From: Podarcis melisellensis
Taxonomy: Eukaryota
Direction: 5' to 3' (one strand)
Assembly (NCBI GenBank): GCA_964234715.1
Contig: OZ174279.1
Length of the DNA: 64,000 bases
Shown: in pieces, positions 11,489-58,818 of the stretch
Position numbering within the stretch: position 1 is the first letter of the stretch
Layout of the letters: each line of letters starts with the position of its first letter
Translations under genes and position numbers: made by a program
The notes under the pieces: model-generated
Databases searched by the model: none
What the model saw: the letters and a program-made list of their open reading frames with translations, nothing else
Told to the model about the DNA's origin: nothing

Positions 11489-11769
11489 GACTTTTGGATC
11501 AAGCCACCGGACGAACGCTACGGCCGCCGGTTTGAATTTGGGCGGGAAAAGCCGTTGTCGCGGGGAAGGGGGGCGGGGTTTCCACCTTCGGAACGTCGGG
11601 ATTGGGCCGAAGCACGAGCGGCGCGCGCATACTCCCTGCCCAGTAACTGTGCTGCGCGAGACAAGTGATAGAAAAATGGGCGGGGGGGGAGGAGTAAGGG
11701 CGCAGGGCTACAAAGCGAAGCGGCGGCAACAACACGCGTGCGCACTGCCTGCCGCATTACGTCAGCGTC

Positions 11770-12021
11770 AGCTGTCAGCCGCCGCCGCCGCCTCAGCGGA
11801 TGGGGCAGGAGGCCGGCAGCGAGTTCCGGGGCGTGTGCATGAAGGGAGGCGGGTTCCTCGGAGGACGCTGGCCGGTTGCGAGCGAGCGAGTGAGGGAGAG
11901 AGCGAGAGCGACCGAGGCTGCGACCGCTAATCCCCCTTTCCCAACACTGCCGGTACGCTGAGGGACGCCGGGCGAGGCCCACCTGCAAGGCGCTGCTCCT
12001 CCCTCCCCGCCTCGCCCTTGG
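11770..12021 (+). other. CCSER2: CCSER2 non-coding exon 1 (5' UTR); start is approximate
   Basis: GCC-repeat leader inside the CpG island, ending at a strong donor TGG|GTGAGT (intron starts 12022). The TSS cannot be fixed from sequence alone. Confidence 0.65.
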
Positions 12022-12407
12022 GTGAGTGTCAGCCGCGGGTGTGTTGAGATGGAGAGTAAGGAGCCGGCTGAAAGGACGGGGGGGTTGTGATGAGGAGGAA
12101 GGAGCCGGGTCTCCCCCCTCCCCATACCCTTTCCAACATCCTCTCCCGCATTGTAAGGTTGGGGGGGGCAGCGAGGGGCCTCCCTGCTCGTGGGCTGAGT
12201 CAGCGGACAGCTGGTACCTTCGCCCCATCTCTCTCTCTCTCCCTCCCTCCACGGGGGGGGGGGGCTTCTGACCTCTCTTCTCTCTCTCTCCCCCCCCCCA
12301 TCTGCGAATCTCGTGGTTCTTCGGTGGGCGCGATTGGCTGCACGGCCGTGTGACTGACTGTGCAAGAGACGGACGAAGATGCTGCATCACCGTCGTGACC
12401 ACTAGCC

Positions 12408-12409
<2 letters not shown>

Positions 12410-12466
<57 letters not shown>
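12410..12466. repeat. (CT)n microsatellite in intron 1
   Basis: About 28 perfect CT units. Confidence 0.95.
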
Positions 12467-12468
<2 letters not shown>

Positions 12469-15400
12469 CCTCCTTAAAGAAAACCAGGCTTAGGAGATGC
12501 TCGTGTCTTGGAGAGAGAGCGGGGAGGGCGGACTTAACCGCTGCGTCGGGGAGCAGATTTGCTAACCCTCCGGTTGATGGAAGGAGGGAGGGAGATGCCT
12601 GGGCTCAAATCTGCTCGGAGAAACGCCCTAGCTCTCCCCGGGAAGTCTTGTCCCTGAGCTTTTTGGGGACTCCCTAGTTTATGCAGGTTGAGGGAAATTC
12701 AGTTTGTGCTTGCTCATGGTTGCCTACAGCATGTCTTCCTGGATTCAGCCCAGGCCTTGAAAAGAGATGCTGGGGAGACCTGGCAGGAGTCGAGCACTGG
12801 TCCTAACTGCAGGCCTTTCTCAATCCACCTTTGCTGGCTTGAGGCAGGAGGTGGCCTTGCGGCAGTGTTTCCTGCCTACCAGTGTTCCTGTAGGGGTGTC
12901 CTTTTTATCCTAGGGTGGGGGCAGTGTTTGAGAAGTGTATGTATATGTGTGTGTGGCCAGGTAACACTTCTACCGGCTTTAAAGGCCGGATGACATCTCC
13001 ATATTGCTTAAAAACAGACAAAGGCTGCTGCTTCTGTACCTGGGCTGGTGACTGAAGGAGTGCTACTGTGTTTATCCTCATTTCAAACATACAATGACTC
13101 ATTATAAGCTTGTCCTGTCAGGGAAGGTAATATTGAGTGTCTTTCTTTGTTTTCTTATGTTTCAGACTTTGAAGCTCTCTGACCTTGGGCAAGTCATCAC
13201 TTCTCAGCCCATTCTCTCCTACTGCTATTGTGAGGATAAAAGGCACAATGTTTGTAAAGCACTTTGCAAATGGAAAGTGATGTTGAACTAATAATTAACA
13301 GTATTTAATTTTTTTCCCAAATAGTTGGAACATAAGTTCACCATTCAGTCCATTTGAGAGAATTTCTGAAACTTGAGAATAACAACATTCATGGTTACTT
13401 TTTCACACACTCAAATTCTTGCCACAGTCTTCTTTTCAATGGTTTTGTATGACTAGCTCCTTTTCCCTTGACCTTCTCTGCTGTCTTGTCCCTTCTGCTT
13501 CCTGACAGCTGGTATAAGGAGAGGGGTCAGACAGGCGTTGAACAATTCAATCTGTTTGGGAGAGACGGAGGCTGAATTCAGCTGACATGGCAATCCATGG
13601 ATTGTTTTTACATCTGAACCCATGTTTGCTCGCTGACTTTGTGTTTTGGGATATAGGAACATTGTTTTAAACTGGTTTGCACTGGCAAGCTTGCCCCAGC
13701 TGGAGTTGCCATTAAGTATGAGTTCACAGTGCAACAGCCTCTTGAGACTGAGCAGCAGCCATAAATGTAGTTTGTTGATGATTTGTGGAGCTGGGAGTGA
13801 ACTTATGAAGATAAGTGCTAAACAGTAAATGAAAACAAACAAGCAATTCTAAACCATGGTTTGCCAATTTTACATTTGGAATCACAAACTGTGGTGTGGG
13901 TTATTAATTATAAGCAAAAATATTATGCTTGGATGTATGCATAGAAGGCAGTATGATTTTATCTCTATTGCCGGTCTTAAAAGGGGAGAAACCTCACTTT
14001 GGTAATCTGGTGAGCAGTCTCTCAGGTTTCTCACAGTGGATTGACATTCGGCTGTAACCTCTAAGGGCTCATCCATACAAAAGCTTCCTGCACTCCCATT
14101 TGGCGCTAGTACACAGTTGGAGTTGATTTCAACTTACTGAAACTAGAGAGGGTAGATTTTGTCCAAATATAGAGAGTGTCTCTCTGTGTGTAATTGGATC
14201 TCCTCGTTTGTCTGATGTATGTATTTTAAAAAATATTGTTGGATAAGTAAATGATTAGAAATTGTACAGGACTAACAGCCTGGTCCTCTGTAGAGTTAAG
14301 TACACCAAAGCCTATTGAAATTGGTTGGATGGGTCGCTGACTCAGCATAGATTGGGTTATAGTTCTTTAAAGGGTTTCTGGTTCCTAAGATGAGAGTCTC
14401 CCTGGGTGTGGTCTGTGCAGCCAGGTTGGTACTTGAGCACTGTGTCAGAAAGCAGTAATGATAATCATTGCACAACTGTTAAAAGCAATTAAAAATACTA
14501 AATTTAATTTATTTAATGTCATGTTCAGAAGGTAACAGCATGGATAGATTTCTACTACTCACAAACAGTAGTTTCCTTAAGTTACATTATTAATAATACT
14601 GAGCTGAATTCAGCTAACCCCTGATCTGTTAGCAGGTCAGTGCAATGACTCCCACTAGTGTAGCAGGACTCCCTCTCTGCTCCCCCAATTTACACTGGAG
14701 GTCTGGGAAAGCCCCCAAAATAGCATGCAGTGGGAGGAGAGGAGAAGTTGTTCAGTTGGGCAAATAGAAATACTTGTGCTGACAGAACAATCTCCTTAAC
14801 ATTGTGTTGAATTCCATCCACTTTGTCTTAGTGGCAAGAAGGGTAGTTTCTTCATTGTTGCCCATAAGAAATGCTGTTAATGTTGCTGAGTATAGGTTTT
14901 GAAGTAGTAGTCTTCAAAACAATGTTAATCTTTAATATTTCTAGGAAAGTTAAGAATTATTTTAGAAGTGTCTCTTATGTCTCTTAGCATAAGAAGGCAT
15001 ACCTCTTGTATTAGGGATATGGAAGTCTTTATTTGGTCCCTAGAAGTAAATATTGTAGTTCAGATTGTTGTTTCTTTTCTTTAGAGGATCAAACAGAAGA
15101 AGTTACAGATGGAATCTGGGCTGTCCGTTAGCCTCTTTGAAGGCTAGCATCATTACTCTTTCTAATGATTTGCAGTGTCATCTGGTGCCTAGCAGTTCTT
15201 GGCAAGTTCCATCATGAGATGAGCATTCACATTTTTCAGGATGTAGTACATTAATAACATTTGTAATTCTAGGCTGTAAAATTGTAATAGCAATAGTAAC
15301 CAAAAAATGAACGAAATAAATGAAATTTAAAAAGAAAAAAGGGTTGTTGTGTCACAAAGCAGCCTTTCTCAGCCTTGTCTCCCCAGATGTTGTTGAACCA

Positions 15401-19440: not shown

Positions 19441-20284
19441 AAAGTTTCAAGCCATTTTCAATATATGGAATTAATACTTTACAATAATATTGGTAGATTA
19501 GATCAATGTTGCCACCTTATACATCATGTTCTGGGCTTGTATTCACAGAAATGCCTTTATTCTCTTTCAAATGGAACAGCTGATCCTGCGCAATATTTGG
19601 CTTCTGTTTACAGAAAGTGTTTCTATCTATCTGCCTGTGCTCTCAACAGCTTAGATATTTTGTGGATAAATTGTAACTGTTGCTATGGAGTTCTTGGAAA
19701 TACAAAATATAATCTTGAGATAACAGATACATGCATCAGTGTGGACTCTTGAGCAGGTAGCAGTGCTTACTTGGTGACAACACTTGATATTAAAAGTGTA
19801 TTGAGGTGACATTTGGAAAGATGCTGTGGGCAATGATTTGTATTGGCAGCAGCCCACAGGATGGCTTCTGAAGAAGTTGGATATATGATGCATTTTGATG
19901 AAACCTCCCATGTTTACTTCAGATTTATCCCCAGATCATCACCCTTTGCCAACTTTATTATATTTGTGAACTAGTTCCTACATCTGTCTTCTCCGCTTTT
20001 CTAGCGTAACTGTGGTAAAATTGCATTTGGCAGATTTACATGGATCTCTTTCTGAAATACTTGTTTCTGTGTAAGAAGATTCTATTCATTGTAAATGTAT
20101 TTGAGTTGTTTCAGTAAACAGATAGTTGCTCATTTAAGGATGTCAGGTCAGATTTATACAATACACTGTGTATACACTCCGTAATCATGGTTGTGCAGTT
20201 AACATTTTCATCTTTTTCTCTTTCTTTCTCTTTCTAGAGTCAAGTAATGTTAAAGGACAATATCTCATGGAAGGACTATAGCTA

Positions 20285-21689
20285 ATGGAAGAGAAAAGTC
20301 ATATCAGGACATCATTGGTTTCCAGGTTACCAAAGTATGGAACAAAACCTGCTGGAAATATGCTACAGACCATCCCAAATGGGACAGCTGTTAATTTATC
20401 AGGGAATACTCGGAGCGTTGACAAAGGTTTTGGCAAGCACAATGGCACTATTCGTATGTCTTCCTTCTCTTTTAACTGGCGAAAATCAAATAAATACCAA
20501 CTGGGTGATCAGGTCAGCAGTGAATCTGACTCTAGTCATAATTCCAATGAAAGGCTGACAGATTCTGAAAAGTGCCCTCAGTCTGAAGGAGCAGTTGGTA
20601 AAGAAGTTCTCAGGGTGGGTTCAAGGAACACCTTGTCAAAACTAGCTAAGCAAAACAGCATGTTTGTGTCACCTACCGACGAATTAAACCAAAAGGCTTT
20701 GCCTGGGCTGTCTAGTTCTGCTAAGTACAGTAAAAGTTCCTTGTTAGGCAGAACTTCATTTTCTGGACTTCATGCTCCAAAATCACACTTGAATGGAATT
20801 TGTGGGAACCGTTCAACTATAGGCTTGCAGAGGAATAGAGGTATTTCTACTGCCACCAGGAGCAGCTCAGGGGAGAGTCTGGCAAAATTGACTGACAATG
20901 ATAAATCTTGTGAAAAAATGGTTAGGTCACAAAGCTTTTCACATTCCATTCAAAGCTCTATCTTGCCCCCTGCAACCCTAACTAGGTCACACTCTTTTAA
21001 CAGAGCTGTGGATCTTACAAGGCCTTATCAAAACCAACACTTAACTATTAGAGCATCTCAGAGGTCAAATCTATTGTCAAGAAGTGCACGGCAGTTGGAT
21101 ATGCCCAATGGCAATGAATCATTAAGATATGGGTTTTCTAGATCATATGCTGCTTTAGCTCCCCCTGGTTTGAAAAAACAACCACTATCCAATGGCTCTG
21201 GGGATGCACCTTCTCTCAGATTTAGAACAGCTCGTCCATCTTTATTGAAGCCAAGCAACCAACATTTGGGGAGAAAGATACCTGTGGATGGCAACACAAG
21301 TAAAGATGCTGAAAACTGCGCAGAAGACTTGATTTCAACAAATAGCAGTGGAGGAGTTGATGCAAAAGGAATGCAAAACAGTGAAAGAACTGAAGATGGA
21401 GAAACTGTACATAATAATGTAGATAAAATTATTAGCATGGATGGCGATGTTGATGAAATATCTATATCTTCCTTGTCCTCTTCTGAGAAAAATGATCTGA
21501 GCGAAGACTTTAGTGATGACTTCATAGATCTAGAAGATCCCAACCGACCAATAACAATTCAAGAAGAAGTGGTTTCTGTTCAAGAGCTGGAGCATGGCAA
21601 TGGAATACCACTAGATCAGATTTTGTCTCTTAAGAAAAGTGAAAGATCCAACTGTAATTCTGATGAATGGCTGAATATACGTGTGTCTG
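20285..21689 (+). CDS. CCSER2: CCSER2 exon 2 coding part (exon starts 20238); Ser-rich N-terminal region, 468 codons + 1 nt
   Basis: Polypyrimidine tract with TAG acceptor at 20236-37. MEEKSHIRTSLVSRLPKYGTK...EKMVRSQSFSHSIQ...RSHSFNRAVDLT...SSSEKNDLSEDFSDDFIDLED matches recalled vertebrate CCSER2. Donor TCTG|GTAAAT, phase 1. Confidence 0.96.
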
Positions 21690-23087
21690 GTAAATATATG
21701 TTATGTTTTTTCTTTGAAAATGGGAACCTAAGCTCTTACAGTATTGTCACTACTATTTTGTCACCTAATAGTGTGCATTAAATTTTTTGGTTAGATTATA
21801 AATAACAAATATGTGAAGAAGTCTACCAATAGGTTTTATTGATTGTTCAAAATTTTATTAGTTTTTCTAATAAAGTTTTAGAGGAAAAAATAAGTTATTT
21901 CTTGGACTTAGGTGCTCTGGAGGAAGTTTTCCCCAATGTGTTTTGTCCACAAACACATTATTAACTAGTTCTATATACAGTGGTACTAAGAAACTTGGCT
22001 CTATTACAAAACTATTTTTAATTGTCCTAATGGTACTACCAAGCAGCTAATTTGTACGTCTCCTCAAACAAGGTAACTATGAAGCTGTTCTACCATTGAT
22101 TGCTGTTCATCTTCCTGGATTCTTAGTGCCATCATGCTAGTAGACAGTGTGCAGATGCAAATTCTGTGTTAAAATAATGTGCCTGATCTAGCCAAATTTG
22201 ACCATAGTTTTAAGTCCTCTTTAATTTGATGGAAGAGTAAAAAGCAAATGCCTAGCTTGTGCAACAGTCTAACATTTGTGGCAGAAGAAACTATGGCAAG
22301 CTATCATTGTTATTATTTATTTGATTTATATACCACCCTCCATCAGTTATGTCTGTTTTGGAAGGGCTAATTTTAGAAAGTTAAAGTCTTGCCTCATGTT
22401 CTCTTAGCCATGTTTTGCAGCAAAAGAAAAATAGTTTATACTATAAAACACTGTGAAACTATGAGTTGAGCTGTGATCCTAGAAGTAAATTAATATCAGT
22501 AGGTTTTGGTATGTTTGCTTTATAAATTGAACAATTTCTTAGAAAGTGTTGACAGATGGAATGCTTGTAGTTGTGATCAGAATATAAGAGGTAATCTGTA
22601 TCTTTATTCCAACAACAGCAAGGGTCAAGATTCAAGGACGGAGTCCTGTTTCTTCTCCTTGGTTGCGTCTGAAATTTGAAAAGAGGAGACAATTGACTTC
22701 TGCTTACTCTAGTGGAACATATAAAATGTTTGCAACATGAGGTTCCATCTAGTTTGAGAGGAGGTTCTGAACAACAGAACAGCATTTGCTAATCTGCCAA
22801 TTCTTACTGGAACTCATGACTAGGTCCACTTTCTCAGCATCCAATGTTAATACTGTGTTTTAATTGTTGTAACCCACCCTGAAATATTGGGGTGAAGGTT
22901 AATGAAAATAAAAATAGTAATTATTAATAATAACAGGAAAGAACTATGTAGCTAAGTTAAGTTACAAAGTATTGTGAGCTTGCCATTCTTGAATATGTTT
23001 TCAACATTGCTGGCTGACCTGCTTTACAAAACTCTTAAACTATTTGCATTGGAATATTTACTTTTTAGAAATAGTACAGAGAGAGAA

Positions 23088-24005
23088 GGCATGTGGGTGG
23101 TGCTGTGGTCTAAACCATAGAGCCTAGGGCTTGCTGATCAGAAGGTCGGCGGTTCAAATCCCCTCTTTTTTATTTTATTTTTTTAAAATAATTTTTATTA
23201 ACCGACCAATCAAATCACATCACATAAGTTCTGAATTACAAAGCCGAATTTTATATTTTTTGTTGGGGGGACCCATATTTCATGTTCCGAAGGGGATTCC
23301 AATCATCTTCTTGCTGCTGCGTTAATATCCACAAATCTGTCCAAATAATGTTCATAATTCTATCCAGTCCTATCTTGCTGTTCTCACGTCTCATCTTGTT
23401 CGTATATTTTTCTTTTTTTCTTTATGATCTCTTCTGATAATCTCCTTAAGCAGGTAAACACCAGTTATAATCCTGTGTGAATTTTCTGTTCGTCCAATCA
23501 TCATGTTGAGATGGTATCCATATATCATCACTTTCATAAGCATCCAGGAGCGCCGAAGTCTGCACAAGGGCTTTCTGCCTAGTGCCCCCACCCCCTCAAA
23601 TTCGGGGGTGGTATAGGGCACAGCAGGCAAGGGCAGTCCCCCCCACATGCCACCTCGTGTGGGTCGGAGAGATGTTATTGTCAGCCATCTTCCGATGCGC
23701 CCCTAGTGGCCCCCCGGCGGTTCAAATCCCCTCAATGGGGTGAGCTCCCATTGCTCGGTCCCTGCTCCTGCCAACCTAGCAGTTCAAAAGCACATCAAAG
23801 TGCAAGTAGTTAAATAGGTACTGCTCCGGCAGGAAGGTAAACAGCGTTTCCGTGCGGTGTTCTGCTTCGCCAGAAGCGGCTTAGTTATGCTGGCCACAGG
23901 ACCCGGAAGCTGTACGCTGCCTCCCTCGGACAGTAAAGTGACATGAGCACCGCAACCCCAGAGTTGTCCGTGACTGGACCTAATGGTGGGGGGTTCCTTT
24001 ACCTT
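23088..24005 (+). mobile_element. Sauria SINE interrupted at its B box by a 549-bp insertion
   Basis: tRNA-like head (GGTGGTGCTGTGG A box, GGTTCAAATCC B box), CCTGCCAACCTAGCAGTTC core and (CCTTTA)n tail; 13-bp TSD TACAGAGAGAGAA (23075-87, 24006-18). Confidence 0.92.
23166..23714 (-). mobile_element. Polyadenylated non-autonomous retroposon (L1-type mobilisation), unclassified
   Basis: 19-bp perfect TSD CGGCGGTTCAAATCCCCTC (23147-65, 23715-33). Minus strand AATAAA (23194-99) plus A-rich tail (23166-84). 5' end GGGGGCCACTAGGGGCGCATCGGAAGATGGCTG. Confidence 0.8.
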
Positions 24006-24135
24006 TACAGAGAGAGAAACTGAGGCGACTCTTGATAACTGCACGTAGGTAATGCAGTATGTAAATTGCAAATTTTGAGAGTTTGTGTATAATGTTAACT
24101 TGTTGCTTTTGCTTTTGCTTTCATTTAAATAGTAG

Positions 24136-24335
24136 ATGACAAGAGTGAAAGTGCAAAACATCCTGCTGGGAGCAATGTGATTTCCTCTGACATGGACTAC
24201 AGAGCTGGCTCTTCCTTTGAGCTTTCTCCATCTGATAGCTCTGATGGAACCTATATGTGGGATGAAGAAGGGTTGGAGCCCATTGGAAGTGTCCATCCAT
24301 GTGGAAGTTATGATTCTTCAGAAATGAATAGTATA
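24136..24335 (+). CDS. CCSER2: CCSER2 exon 3
   Basis: (D)DKSESAKHPAGSNVISSDMDYRAGSSFELSPSDSSDGTYMWDEEGLEPIGSVHPCGSYDSSEMNSI. TAGTAG acceptor, ATA|GTAAGT donor; 200 nt, phase 1 to 0. Confidence 0.95.
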
Positions 24336-58008: not shown

Positions 58009-58103
58009 CCTCAAGTACTACAGCCTTCCAGCCACCTTCCCAGTTTCACAGACCTCGTCCAGGGAAAATTAATAAAAACGTCACTCATCGGGGCCCACAA
58101 TGA
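58009..58103 (+). CDS. CCSER2: CCSER2 terminal exon, short frame (exon 10 included; full protein 831 aa)
   Basis: (T)SSTTAFQPPSQFHRPRPGKINKNVTHRGPQ-TGA, matching the recalled human C-terminus TSSTTAFQQPSQTHRSHPGKTNKATTYRGPQ. Confidence 0.9.
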
Positions 58104-58818
58104 ACCAACAGAAGACCAAAAGAAAAGTGCTGGCCATGAATCTCAAAATGCTGCAGATGGCTCCTTCACCAATAGCCTAAATGAACTGAGCACTTTAAAT
58201 ACACAGTTAAATGTAAGAAAGTCAGAGGAGAATGCACATTCCACCAAGAATGTAAAAGTTAGAGAGAAACCTAAAGAACTGTCTGGTAGAAAAATTAATA
58301 CGCTACATTCGCATCCCTCTTCTCACTCATCTTCCCAAGTAAATACTCAAGAAGTGCAGACCAAATTAGTTCTAAAAAACAATTGCTCACGGACAAACCA
58401 GGCTTCAGCGCCAAAGAGTCCAAGAGCCACCAAGACTCCGAAGCAGAATGCTTTAGTGCCTCCTCCAGTAACGGTTGCAGCAGCATCTGCAGATGGCTCT
58501 TCTGCTTCAAAGGAGCCTGAACAGCTGCCGCCAAGCCACCCAACACAACTGCAGCTGGCATCAAGTCAGTCTGACCTGAGTCATAAGAGCCAGAAAATCT
58601 CAAAGCTTCGTCCTCCAACGATTTCCTTTAGGCCCAAGCAAATGACAAATCCAAAAATCATGATGCCTCCTGAATCTCAGAATACCTGGTCAAAGACAAA
58701 CCACTCAAGGCAACTAATACAAGCAAAAGAAAATATGCAGAATCAAGATTCAAACATTCATTCTGGTGACTGTGTGGCTCCTAATCGGCATTCCCGCCTC
58801 CCTAAACCAAAGACATAA
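58009..58818 (+). CDS. CCSER2: CCSER2 terminal exon, long frame (exon 10 skipped; 269 aa; full protein 1041 aa)
   Basis: TCCTGTAG acceptor at 58007-08. Open frame PQVLQPSSHLPSFTDLVQGKLIK...SKLRPP...HSRLPKPKT-TAA, continuous with track ORF 58354..58818. Confidence 0.9.
   Translation, partial: PQVLQPSSHLPSFTDLVQGKLIKTSLIGAHNEPTEDQKKSAGHESQNAADGSFTNSLNELSTLNTQLNVRKSEENAHSTKNVKVREKPKELSGRKINTLHSHPSSHSSSQVNTQEVQTKLVLKNNCSRTNQASAPKSPRATKTPKQNALVPPPVTVAAASADGSSASKEPEQLPPSHPTQLQLASSQSDLSHKSQKISKLRPPTISFRPKQMTNPKIMMPPESQNTWSKTNHSRQLIQAKENMQNQDSNIHSGDCVAPNRHSRLPKPKT

Follow-up and report, generated by a model that had tools for sequence, protein, structure and literature searches.

The window analysed here, a stretch of 64,000 nucleotides on contig OZ174279.1 of Podarcis melisellensis (GCA_964234715.1), contains one retroposon nested inside another (Table 1). 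The host is a SINE spanning ~23088-24005, or 353 bp once the insert is taken out, flanked by a target site duplication (TSD) of its own with a T-run about 10 nt upstream. Its family is presumably Sauria/Squam1; the length of ~350 bp, tRNA-like head, high copy number and Tn-TA signature are those of that family, the best identity to other SINE copies is 87%, and SINEs of this type make up 2.2% of flank DNA. The 'Tn-TA' target signature has been reported for Bov-B and the Sauria SINE (PMC13295347, section 3.2), and a study of lacertid genomes gives 65,000-131,000 copies of the Sauria/Squam1 SINE (PMC10670947).

The second retroposon lies in the B box of this SINE. The initial annotation had placed a 549-bp minus-strand insert between perfect 19-bp duplications, and both repeats were recovered exactly (100%, spacing 568) and set the insert's length. 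Re-reading of the minus strand also bore out the annotated ends, which consist of G5 followed by AAGATGGC at nt 24-31 on the 5' side and of AATAAA, TTATTTT and a degenerate A tail on the 3' side. The sense-strand target is CCATT/GAGGGG, and the duplication takes in the host's B-box-like word, GTTCAAATC. Because a SINE copy at locus L123 reads GTTCGAATC in its place, the host variant is a CpG-decayed one, and it is found in both copies of the TSD. The insert is younger than its host, as had been proposed, since its end branch in a 68-copy family tree is 0.031 (similar to other copies; its sister is L003, support 97/93) against the 87% of the host. Nor is the insert a chance pattern, because it has hundreds of relatives with TSDs of their own.

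The insertion site is probably intronic: it lies ~130 bp upstream of, and the insert is antisense to, a plus-strand, exon-like, stop-free frame (~24135-24335) that contains DGTYMWDEEGLEPIG and is followed by a GT donor. We presume this frame to be CCSER1/CCSER2-like. Other stop-free frames in the window, at 20282-21781 (+, 499 aa), 11518-12489 (-, 323 aa) and 58009-58818 (+, 269 aa), gave no Pfam match above cut-off and may be either exons or repeats.

Table 1. Features of the nested insertion, in window coordinates.
Feature	Position	Strand	Remarks
Left TSD of host SINE	23075..23087	+	13 nt, TA start; repeat search, signature from PMC13295347 (section 3.2)
Host SINE, 5' part	23088..23165	+	tRNA-like head up to B box
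Insert TSD, copy at element 3' end	23147..23165	+	host B box
549-bp insert	23166..23714	-	singleton of ~1.13-kb family, two internal deletions
A-rich 3' part of insert	23166..23539	-	conserved block 23258-23276, (TGATT)n, AATAAA 23194-23199, T-run, A tail
Deletion 2 junction	23539..23540	-	522-542 nt absent relative to 25 copies, 454 relative to one
GC-rich hairpin domain, remainder	23540..23650	-	
Deletion 1 junction	23650..23652	-	42-52 nt absent relative to 26 copies; one filler base
Family head, nt 1-63	23652..23714	-	G5, CTCF-like word one G short, YY1-like AAGATGGC (23684-23691), start of 12-codon uORF
Insert TSD, copy at element 5' end	23715..23733	+	
Host SINE, 3' part	23734..24005	+	ACCTTT-type repeat at end
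Right TSD of host SINE	24006..24018	+	

A DNA search of the genome with the insert returned 1469 candidates, and scoring of the best 40 gave 77 matches with a three-piece pattern, in which other copies align to nt 1-63, 65-175 and 176-549 of the insert, carry extra sequence in between and total ~1.13 kb. The 549-bp form stands alone, as a copy with two deletions from a 1.05-1.2-kb family. A degenerate pattern laid across the deletion 2 junction matched the genome once, at the window itself, and full-length copies span 1.05-1.22 kb. The notion of a full-length unit of ~550 bp whose copies share that exact length is thereby set aside, although the element does belong to a multi-copy family, as had been suspected, with at least 740 copies genome-wide by its 3' block. 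Deletion 1 begins 2 nt inside a strong donor-like GAG/GTAATT, the deletion 2 junction has short microhomology only and no GT-AG, and neither junction is an exact GT-AG join. Splicing was rejected as the source of both gaps on these grounds and because four RNA runs contained no such joints. Private gaps of at least 30 nt occur in 8 of 106 full-length copies, with large ones also in L057 and L302. The annotated ATG that opens a 30-aa ORF is present in the insert, but the ORF itself is a product of deletion 1; in 96 of 102 full-length copies with the same ATG a stop follows after 12 codons.

Exact patterns counted 102 genomic matches for one 5' word and 118 for one 3' word, a loose 5' pattern gave 497 forward (redundant) and 251 reverse matches, and the conserved 3' block gave the 740 cited above; all are lower bounds, and every reversed-pattern control returned 0. 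Copies were chosen by exact motifs, which biases the sample toward young, intact ones. Two sets of 30 3'-anchored loci indicate that about two-thirds of copies are full length: 20 in one set, where three of the other ten represent one duplicated segment, and 18 within the locus plus 2 across nested insertions in the second, whose remainder comprises one copy starting at nt 17, eight 5'-truncated copies and one ambiguous case. A tandem segmental duplication at L078-L080 (G000:C2:39.17-39.33 Mb) repeats one truncated copy every 50-60 kb, and at L354 a partial copy stands head-to-tail before a full one.

Grouping the 106 full-length copies (a set without L305) at a 12% cut yields 21 clusters, all of which retain the length, the YY1-like head and the 5' hairpins, the latter with compensatory changes. 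Identity between cluster representatives falls to about 0.5-0.65, and that of a copy to its nearest neighbour has a median of 0.95. One 'singleton' cluster turned out to be a subfamily with at least 25 full-length members, ~1.19 kb long, and a truncated copy in L227 is still more distant from the known subfamilies. The clusters, and the subfamilies with young copies, therefore imply many source lineages active at similar times; the family tree is ladder-like. A sequencing-run index search listed DNA rows (shares 0.36-0.40, eight organism labels) and no RNA row. No description of the family appeared in the literature searched, which lay outside most subscription journals, Dfam and Repbase and took in the supplement of PMC5381506 alone; the family may well be present, without a name, in some automatic repeat library.

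Neither single copies nor subfamily majority sequences contain a long ORF, the longest stop-free stretch being 125 aa. No Pfam family rose above cut-off in 39 stop-free stretches, and a homolog search among longer proteins produced 37 candidates with none at E<=0.01, which is weak evidence. Indels between subfamilies come in multiples of 3 in only 85 of 488 cases. In 96 of 102 copies the 12-codon uORF opens within the YY1-like word, and its substitutions show no clear synonymous bias. Translated in one frame, a conserved 3' block (family nt ~1015-1050; window 23258-23290, -) gives [ED]-x-W-[VE]-P-x-x-K in 19 of 21 representatives. Several changes fall at third positions of that frame, and there is no consistent in-frame ATG for a conserved small ORF around the block; judged from sequence, it could be an ORF relic or an RNA- or protein-binding motif.

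A or B boxes were found in 0 of 106 copies, which have a median of five T4+ runs each, and Rfam gave no match inside the element at gathering score across 13 loci. The lack of A/B boxes and the internal T4+ runs speak against an element of Pol III type. SINEs as defined in SINEBase (PMC3531059) are shorter than 700 bp and have a Pol III promoter or a small-RNA-derived head; the family has neither, measures 1.05-1.2 kb, and only its deleted window copy is 549 bp long. The view in the initial annotation that the element is non-coding, non-autonomous and not a tRNA SINE thus agrees with the lack of a long ORF, Pfam match or A/B boxes.

The L1-style G-run/YY1 head holds for the family as well, with AAGATGGC kept in 101 of 106 copies. 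A strict CTCF-like word, scored against the general CTCF consensus, occurs in 22 of 106 copies from 7 clusters and in 0 of 39 in the window's cluster. Head variants among subfamilies differ where the CTCF motif is degenerate (alignment columns 6-19), and the window's cluster is one G short. Mammalian L1s open with a G-run and a YY1 site, and zebrafish L1-1D has a G5 start with AAGATGGC at a similar distance (PMC5381506 and its supplement, in which sequences are cut at ~400 nt), so that both resemble the family in having a G-run and then this word. The published lizard L1 starts, GACTTCCGGTG-N8-ATGGCG for clade 1 and GGGNGCTGCGCATGC for clade 2 (PMC5381506, section 9), both differ from the family head.

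Conservation along the element is highest at its ends (0.94 and 0.89 over the opening 80 nt, 0.81-0.90 over the closing 150) and drops to 0.55-0.64 at nt 550-800. The region at nt 65-215 is more stable than shuffled sequences (z < -2 in 12 of 19 representatives, mean -2.3), its antisense strand folding as well (mean z -2.9 vs -2.3 for sense). Middle and 3' windows show no excess folding stability, the 3' z being positive, and the 3' RNA structure amounts to a 3-pair hairpin without covariation. An alignment of 27 rows showed changes on both sides in 13 of the 46 predicted pairs, a number reached in 0 of 500 shuffles, a control that takes no account of relatedness. Across subfamilies the stem of one hairpin occurs in at least five different complementary versions, and in two stems the native arms match each other better than swapped arms do (equalled in 0 of 20000 permutations). 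A C-GNRA-G loop is present in 32 of 106 copies from 13 of 21 clusters, and in 1 of 39 in the window's cluster. Conservation and covariation point to selection on the ends and RNA shape of the family, and the hairpins probably exert their effect as RNA; against selection on the hairpins, palindromic stems could be repaired by template switching without it.

The insertion signature was read from 87 unique loci. The 3' end fell outside the locus in 4 of them, 4 were without signal and 8 yielded no TSD; of the 71 TSDs obtained, the 67 with at least 13 nt were kept, and 38 copies of other subfamilies brought the set to 105. TSDs measure 13-22 bp (median 17). A pyrimidine stands at -1 in 88 of 105 and at least four of the first five bases are purines in 85 of 105 (Y/RRRRR), the scarcity of A at -1 being partly an artefact of TSD calling beside the A tail. 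Variable TSDs, a poly(A) tail, a Y/purine-run nick and 5'-truncated copies extend the annotated hallmarks of L1-type target-primed reverse transcription (TPRT) to the whole family. TSDs starting with TA number 6 of 105, with no T-run at -10.

A fixed target of the kind used by Tx1-type elements (tRNA, snRNA or B box) is not seen. Five of the 105 targets (L013, L043, L271, L300 and L301), together with L305 and probably L372, lie in one TA-flanked MITE-like repeat, which makes up no more than 0.5-1.2% of background DNA, and L013, L300 and L305 are independent insertions at about the same position in it; this repeat may be a real insertion hot spot, an observation made post hoc. Two further loci have unusual architectures. 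At L345:1250-1540 a family copy immediately follows the poly(A) tail of an L1, whose target site it apparently reuses. At L309 (G000:C1:36087800-36094800) a 1.6-kb L1 3' fragment in the same orientation replaces ~78 nt inside a family copy, the whole within one 19-bp TSD, and represents either an insertion with deletion or a template-switch chimera.

L1 ORF2 fragments retrieved with Pfam zf-RVT gave 50 clade-1-type and 50 clade-2-type loci, a division we drew from ORF2 type and the published 5' consensus. A single L1 family came out complete, at 5.9 kb and with ORFs of 336 and 1266 aa that carry EN and RT; its start, GACTTCCGG, agrees with the published lizard clade 1. Several clade-1-type copies end in AATAAAAA-(T/A)TATTTTT-An, and 75 of 106 family copies have the same tail. 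A TSD could be called in 9 of 20 long clade-1-type loci, six of these at 17-22 bp, and in 16 of 50 clade-2-type loci at 7-17 bp, which overlaps the family range. Across 132 LINE-bearing loci, one L1 5' UTR among them, blastn, tblastn and nhmmer found no homology beyond the A/T tail or family fragments. An L1 5' end joined to an L1 3' end, as annotated, is a possible origin, with the tail common to clade-1-type L1 as its one sequence link to these loci.

A PF14529 search brought up CR1-like and 1114-aa families without homology to the element, and a PF02994 search for a partner found nothing, its controls being silent as well. Profile matches in L198, L220, L227 and L229 come from the family itself, as separate copies or fragments. 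L268/L309, L345, L349, L354 and L361 were rejected as parent elements, being nested or tandem insertions with L1, and Anolis L1_AC9 as a source, its first 400 nt looking unrelated by eye. No ORF1 remnant was found in the family. L1-type mobilisation of other RNAs is known in Anolis, in an account whose available part does not describe the family (PMC4476161). The genome also contains, at L095-L121 and more, APE-RT families of very recent origin, probably active LINEs, in which numerous frames of 1114, 1121, 1131 and 1036 aa are open. Along one chromosome arm (G000:C19:21.3-38.7 Mb) and on small contigs (L186), dozens of near-identical, equal-score L1 ORF2 fragments suggest an amplified segment or sex-chromosome array.

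Four raw RNA runs of a related species were aligned to copy L006 at 88% likeness. In run X23, of unknown tissue, the element is covered end to end at a mean depth of ~44 in one orientation vs 3 in the other (~13:1), which is sense if the library is of dUTP type; a flanking repeat has no such strand bias. Mixed variants in this run suggest that more than one copy is expressed. The other three runs are low in depth and unbiased, so that the bias is seen in 1 of 4, and none of the four has a transcription start peak or a GT-AG joint. The X23 coverage fits autonomous transcription without proving it, and could come from copies lying sense-wise in host transcripts.

We consider it quite probable that the insert is a deleted copy of an ORF-less, ~1.1-kb, L1-mobilised, Pol II-type non-coding retroposon family, one that likely makes its own messenger-type RNA and borrows the L1 enzyme. 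A Pol II transcript would start at nt 1, driven by the G-run/YY1-like head, to which many subfamilies add a CTCF-like word, and AATAAA would direct its polyadenylation. As the hallmarks suggest, L1 ORF2p would then nick at Y/RRRRR, prime on the A tail and carry out TPRT. The hairpin domain may serve a step at the RNA level, for instance stability, export or L1 protein capture, and the short length of the element would explain why most copies retain the promoter. The window copy was shortened by ~46 and ~540 nt, in the course of insertion or later, and gave rise to no further copies; its landing in the B box was a matter of chance, since TT/GAGGGG suits the purine-run preference. More tentatively, as an idea that may well prove wrong, we suggest that the family is a protein-free, Pol II-driven, long-lived L1 parasite, neither SINE nor LINE fragment, with a CTCF/YY1-type promoter and structured RNA domain of its own, dozens of concurrently active lizard subfamilies and no L1 ancestry, which has spread hundreds of promoter and possibly CTCF sites.

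The family could instead be a bipartite or 5'-UTR-only derivative of an extinct or unsampled L1 lineage, an ORF-less relative of HAL1 with the same mechanism, which we regard as somewhat unlikely. The L1-style head and the terminal tail common to clade-1-type L1 argue for such a descent, as does a length near that of the lizard clade-1 5' UTR (~930 nt in L175, and 1352 nt in L1_AC9 according to the supplement of PMC5381506), and the 3' block frame of 19 of 21 representatives could be the relic of an ORF end. Against it stand the lack of DNA or protein homology to the 132 LINE-bearing loci, a set without full-length clade-2 or Tx1 elements, and the GACTTCCGG start of the L1 family recovered whole. 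Moreover, all 5'- and 3'-anchored loci that were inspected give the short family and never ORF1 or ORF2, nested insertions aside, and GAAGATGGC appears once in the supplement of PMC5381506, among sequences cut at ~400 nt, in a zebrafish family. Mobilisation by a LINE other than clade-1 L1 (clade-2 L1, Tx1, RTE/Bov-B or the young 1114-aa APE-RT) is improbable: several further LINE families have open ORFs and no sequence link ties the element to any partner, but the rarity of TA starts and absence of a T-run at -10 are unlike the 'Tn-TA' of Bov-B/Sauria, there is neither a microsatellite tail nor the fixed target of site-specific Tx1, and TSD length and tail agree with clade-1-type L1.

That the insert represents a ~550-bp family preferring SINE or tRNA B boxes, as the initial annotation had considered, is scarcely credible, and the B-box preference is refuted. 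The window copy does sit in a B box and L077 has a B-box-like word near its nick, yet the junction is unique, and in the tabulated targets the window's own is the only one of 105 in this SINE; B-box words near the nick occur in 2 of 105 (window and L077) vs 0.7% of random 37-nt windows, and among the 104 other targets 0 lie inside this SINE, which accounts for 2.2% of flank DNA, and 1 has the word, with 0.7% expected. SpIREs are spliced retrocopies of a longer element. An origin of this kind, or as a processed copy of a cellular RNA, is very improbable despite the poly(A) tail, the TSD and the start of deletion 1 at 2 nt into a donor-like site, because the deletions do not lie at exact GT-AG splice sites, no GT-AG joints appear in the four RNA runs, and private gaps also occur in other copies. 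The short cellular RNA offered earlier as an alternative is rejected by the subfamily structure and ladder-like tree: one cellular source gene, as for a processed pseudogene, cannot give 21 clusters down to ~50-65% identity, the larger ones with young members.

Among known systems, the closest design in the sources available is Sadhu of Arabidopsis, which is ~1 kb long, non-coding and non-autonomous, with poly(A), LINE-type TSDs and a driver left unidentified in the available text (PMC2848041). Neither has Pol III boxes or resembles known RNAs, and both have similar targets (T/AAAA-like in Sadhu), a motif conserved at the 5' end and deeply divergent subfamilies. Sadhu has a head of CAATCGTTSC plus a pyrimidine patch, whereas the family has a G-run/CTCF-like/YY1-like head, and the Sadhu motif and patch are absent from 27 aligned family heads; Sadhu is also represented by 16-21 full-length copies with TSDs of 7-18 bp, against hundreds of copies and TSDs of 13-22 bp here. 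Covarying hairpins set the lizard family apart, Sadhu is a plant element, and convergence is assumed.

ORF-less bipartite LINE derivatives include RIME, NARTc, Vingi and RTE derivatives and the R2 SIDEs; RTE, Ingi, Vingi and R2 are the only LINEs for which Kojima 2018 (PMC5786205), in the part available, gives ORF-less Pol II derivatives. Like them the family is ORF-less, Pol II-type and LINE-dependent; they match both ends of an autonomous LINE, however, whereas the family has L1-type hallmarks and no partner homology in the loci compared. HAL1 (half-L1) shares with it a non-autonomous, L1-dependent character and L1-type ends but encodes ORF1p (PMC5753468, PMC5786205), of which the family has neither ORF nor remnant.

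Known L1 passengers comprise Pol III SINEs, ORF1-coding HAL1, SVA-type composites of apes and dead retrocopies. SVA/LAVA elements of apes are non-coding, Pol II-type, L1-mobilised and longer than 1 kb, SVA being a composite of Alu, VNTR and ERV; in the searches run the family has no recognisable module, and it has a fixed length and an L1-style head. The family is a probable new variant of L1-dependent non-coding retroposon, and the window locus itself is ordinary. An ORF-less 1.1-kb lineage that has kept its length, head and hairpins while its body drifted by 35-45% would map the RNA features needed for choice in trans by L1 proteins, and the family would supply dispersed promoters and young phylogenetic markers in lizards. 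If true, the reading of the family as an L1 parasite would make it the animal counterpart of plant Sadhu.
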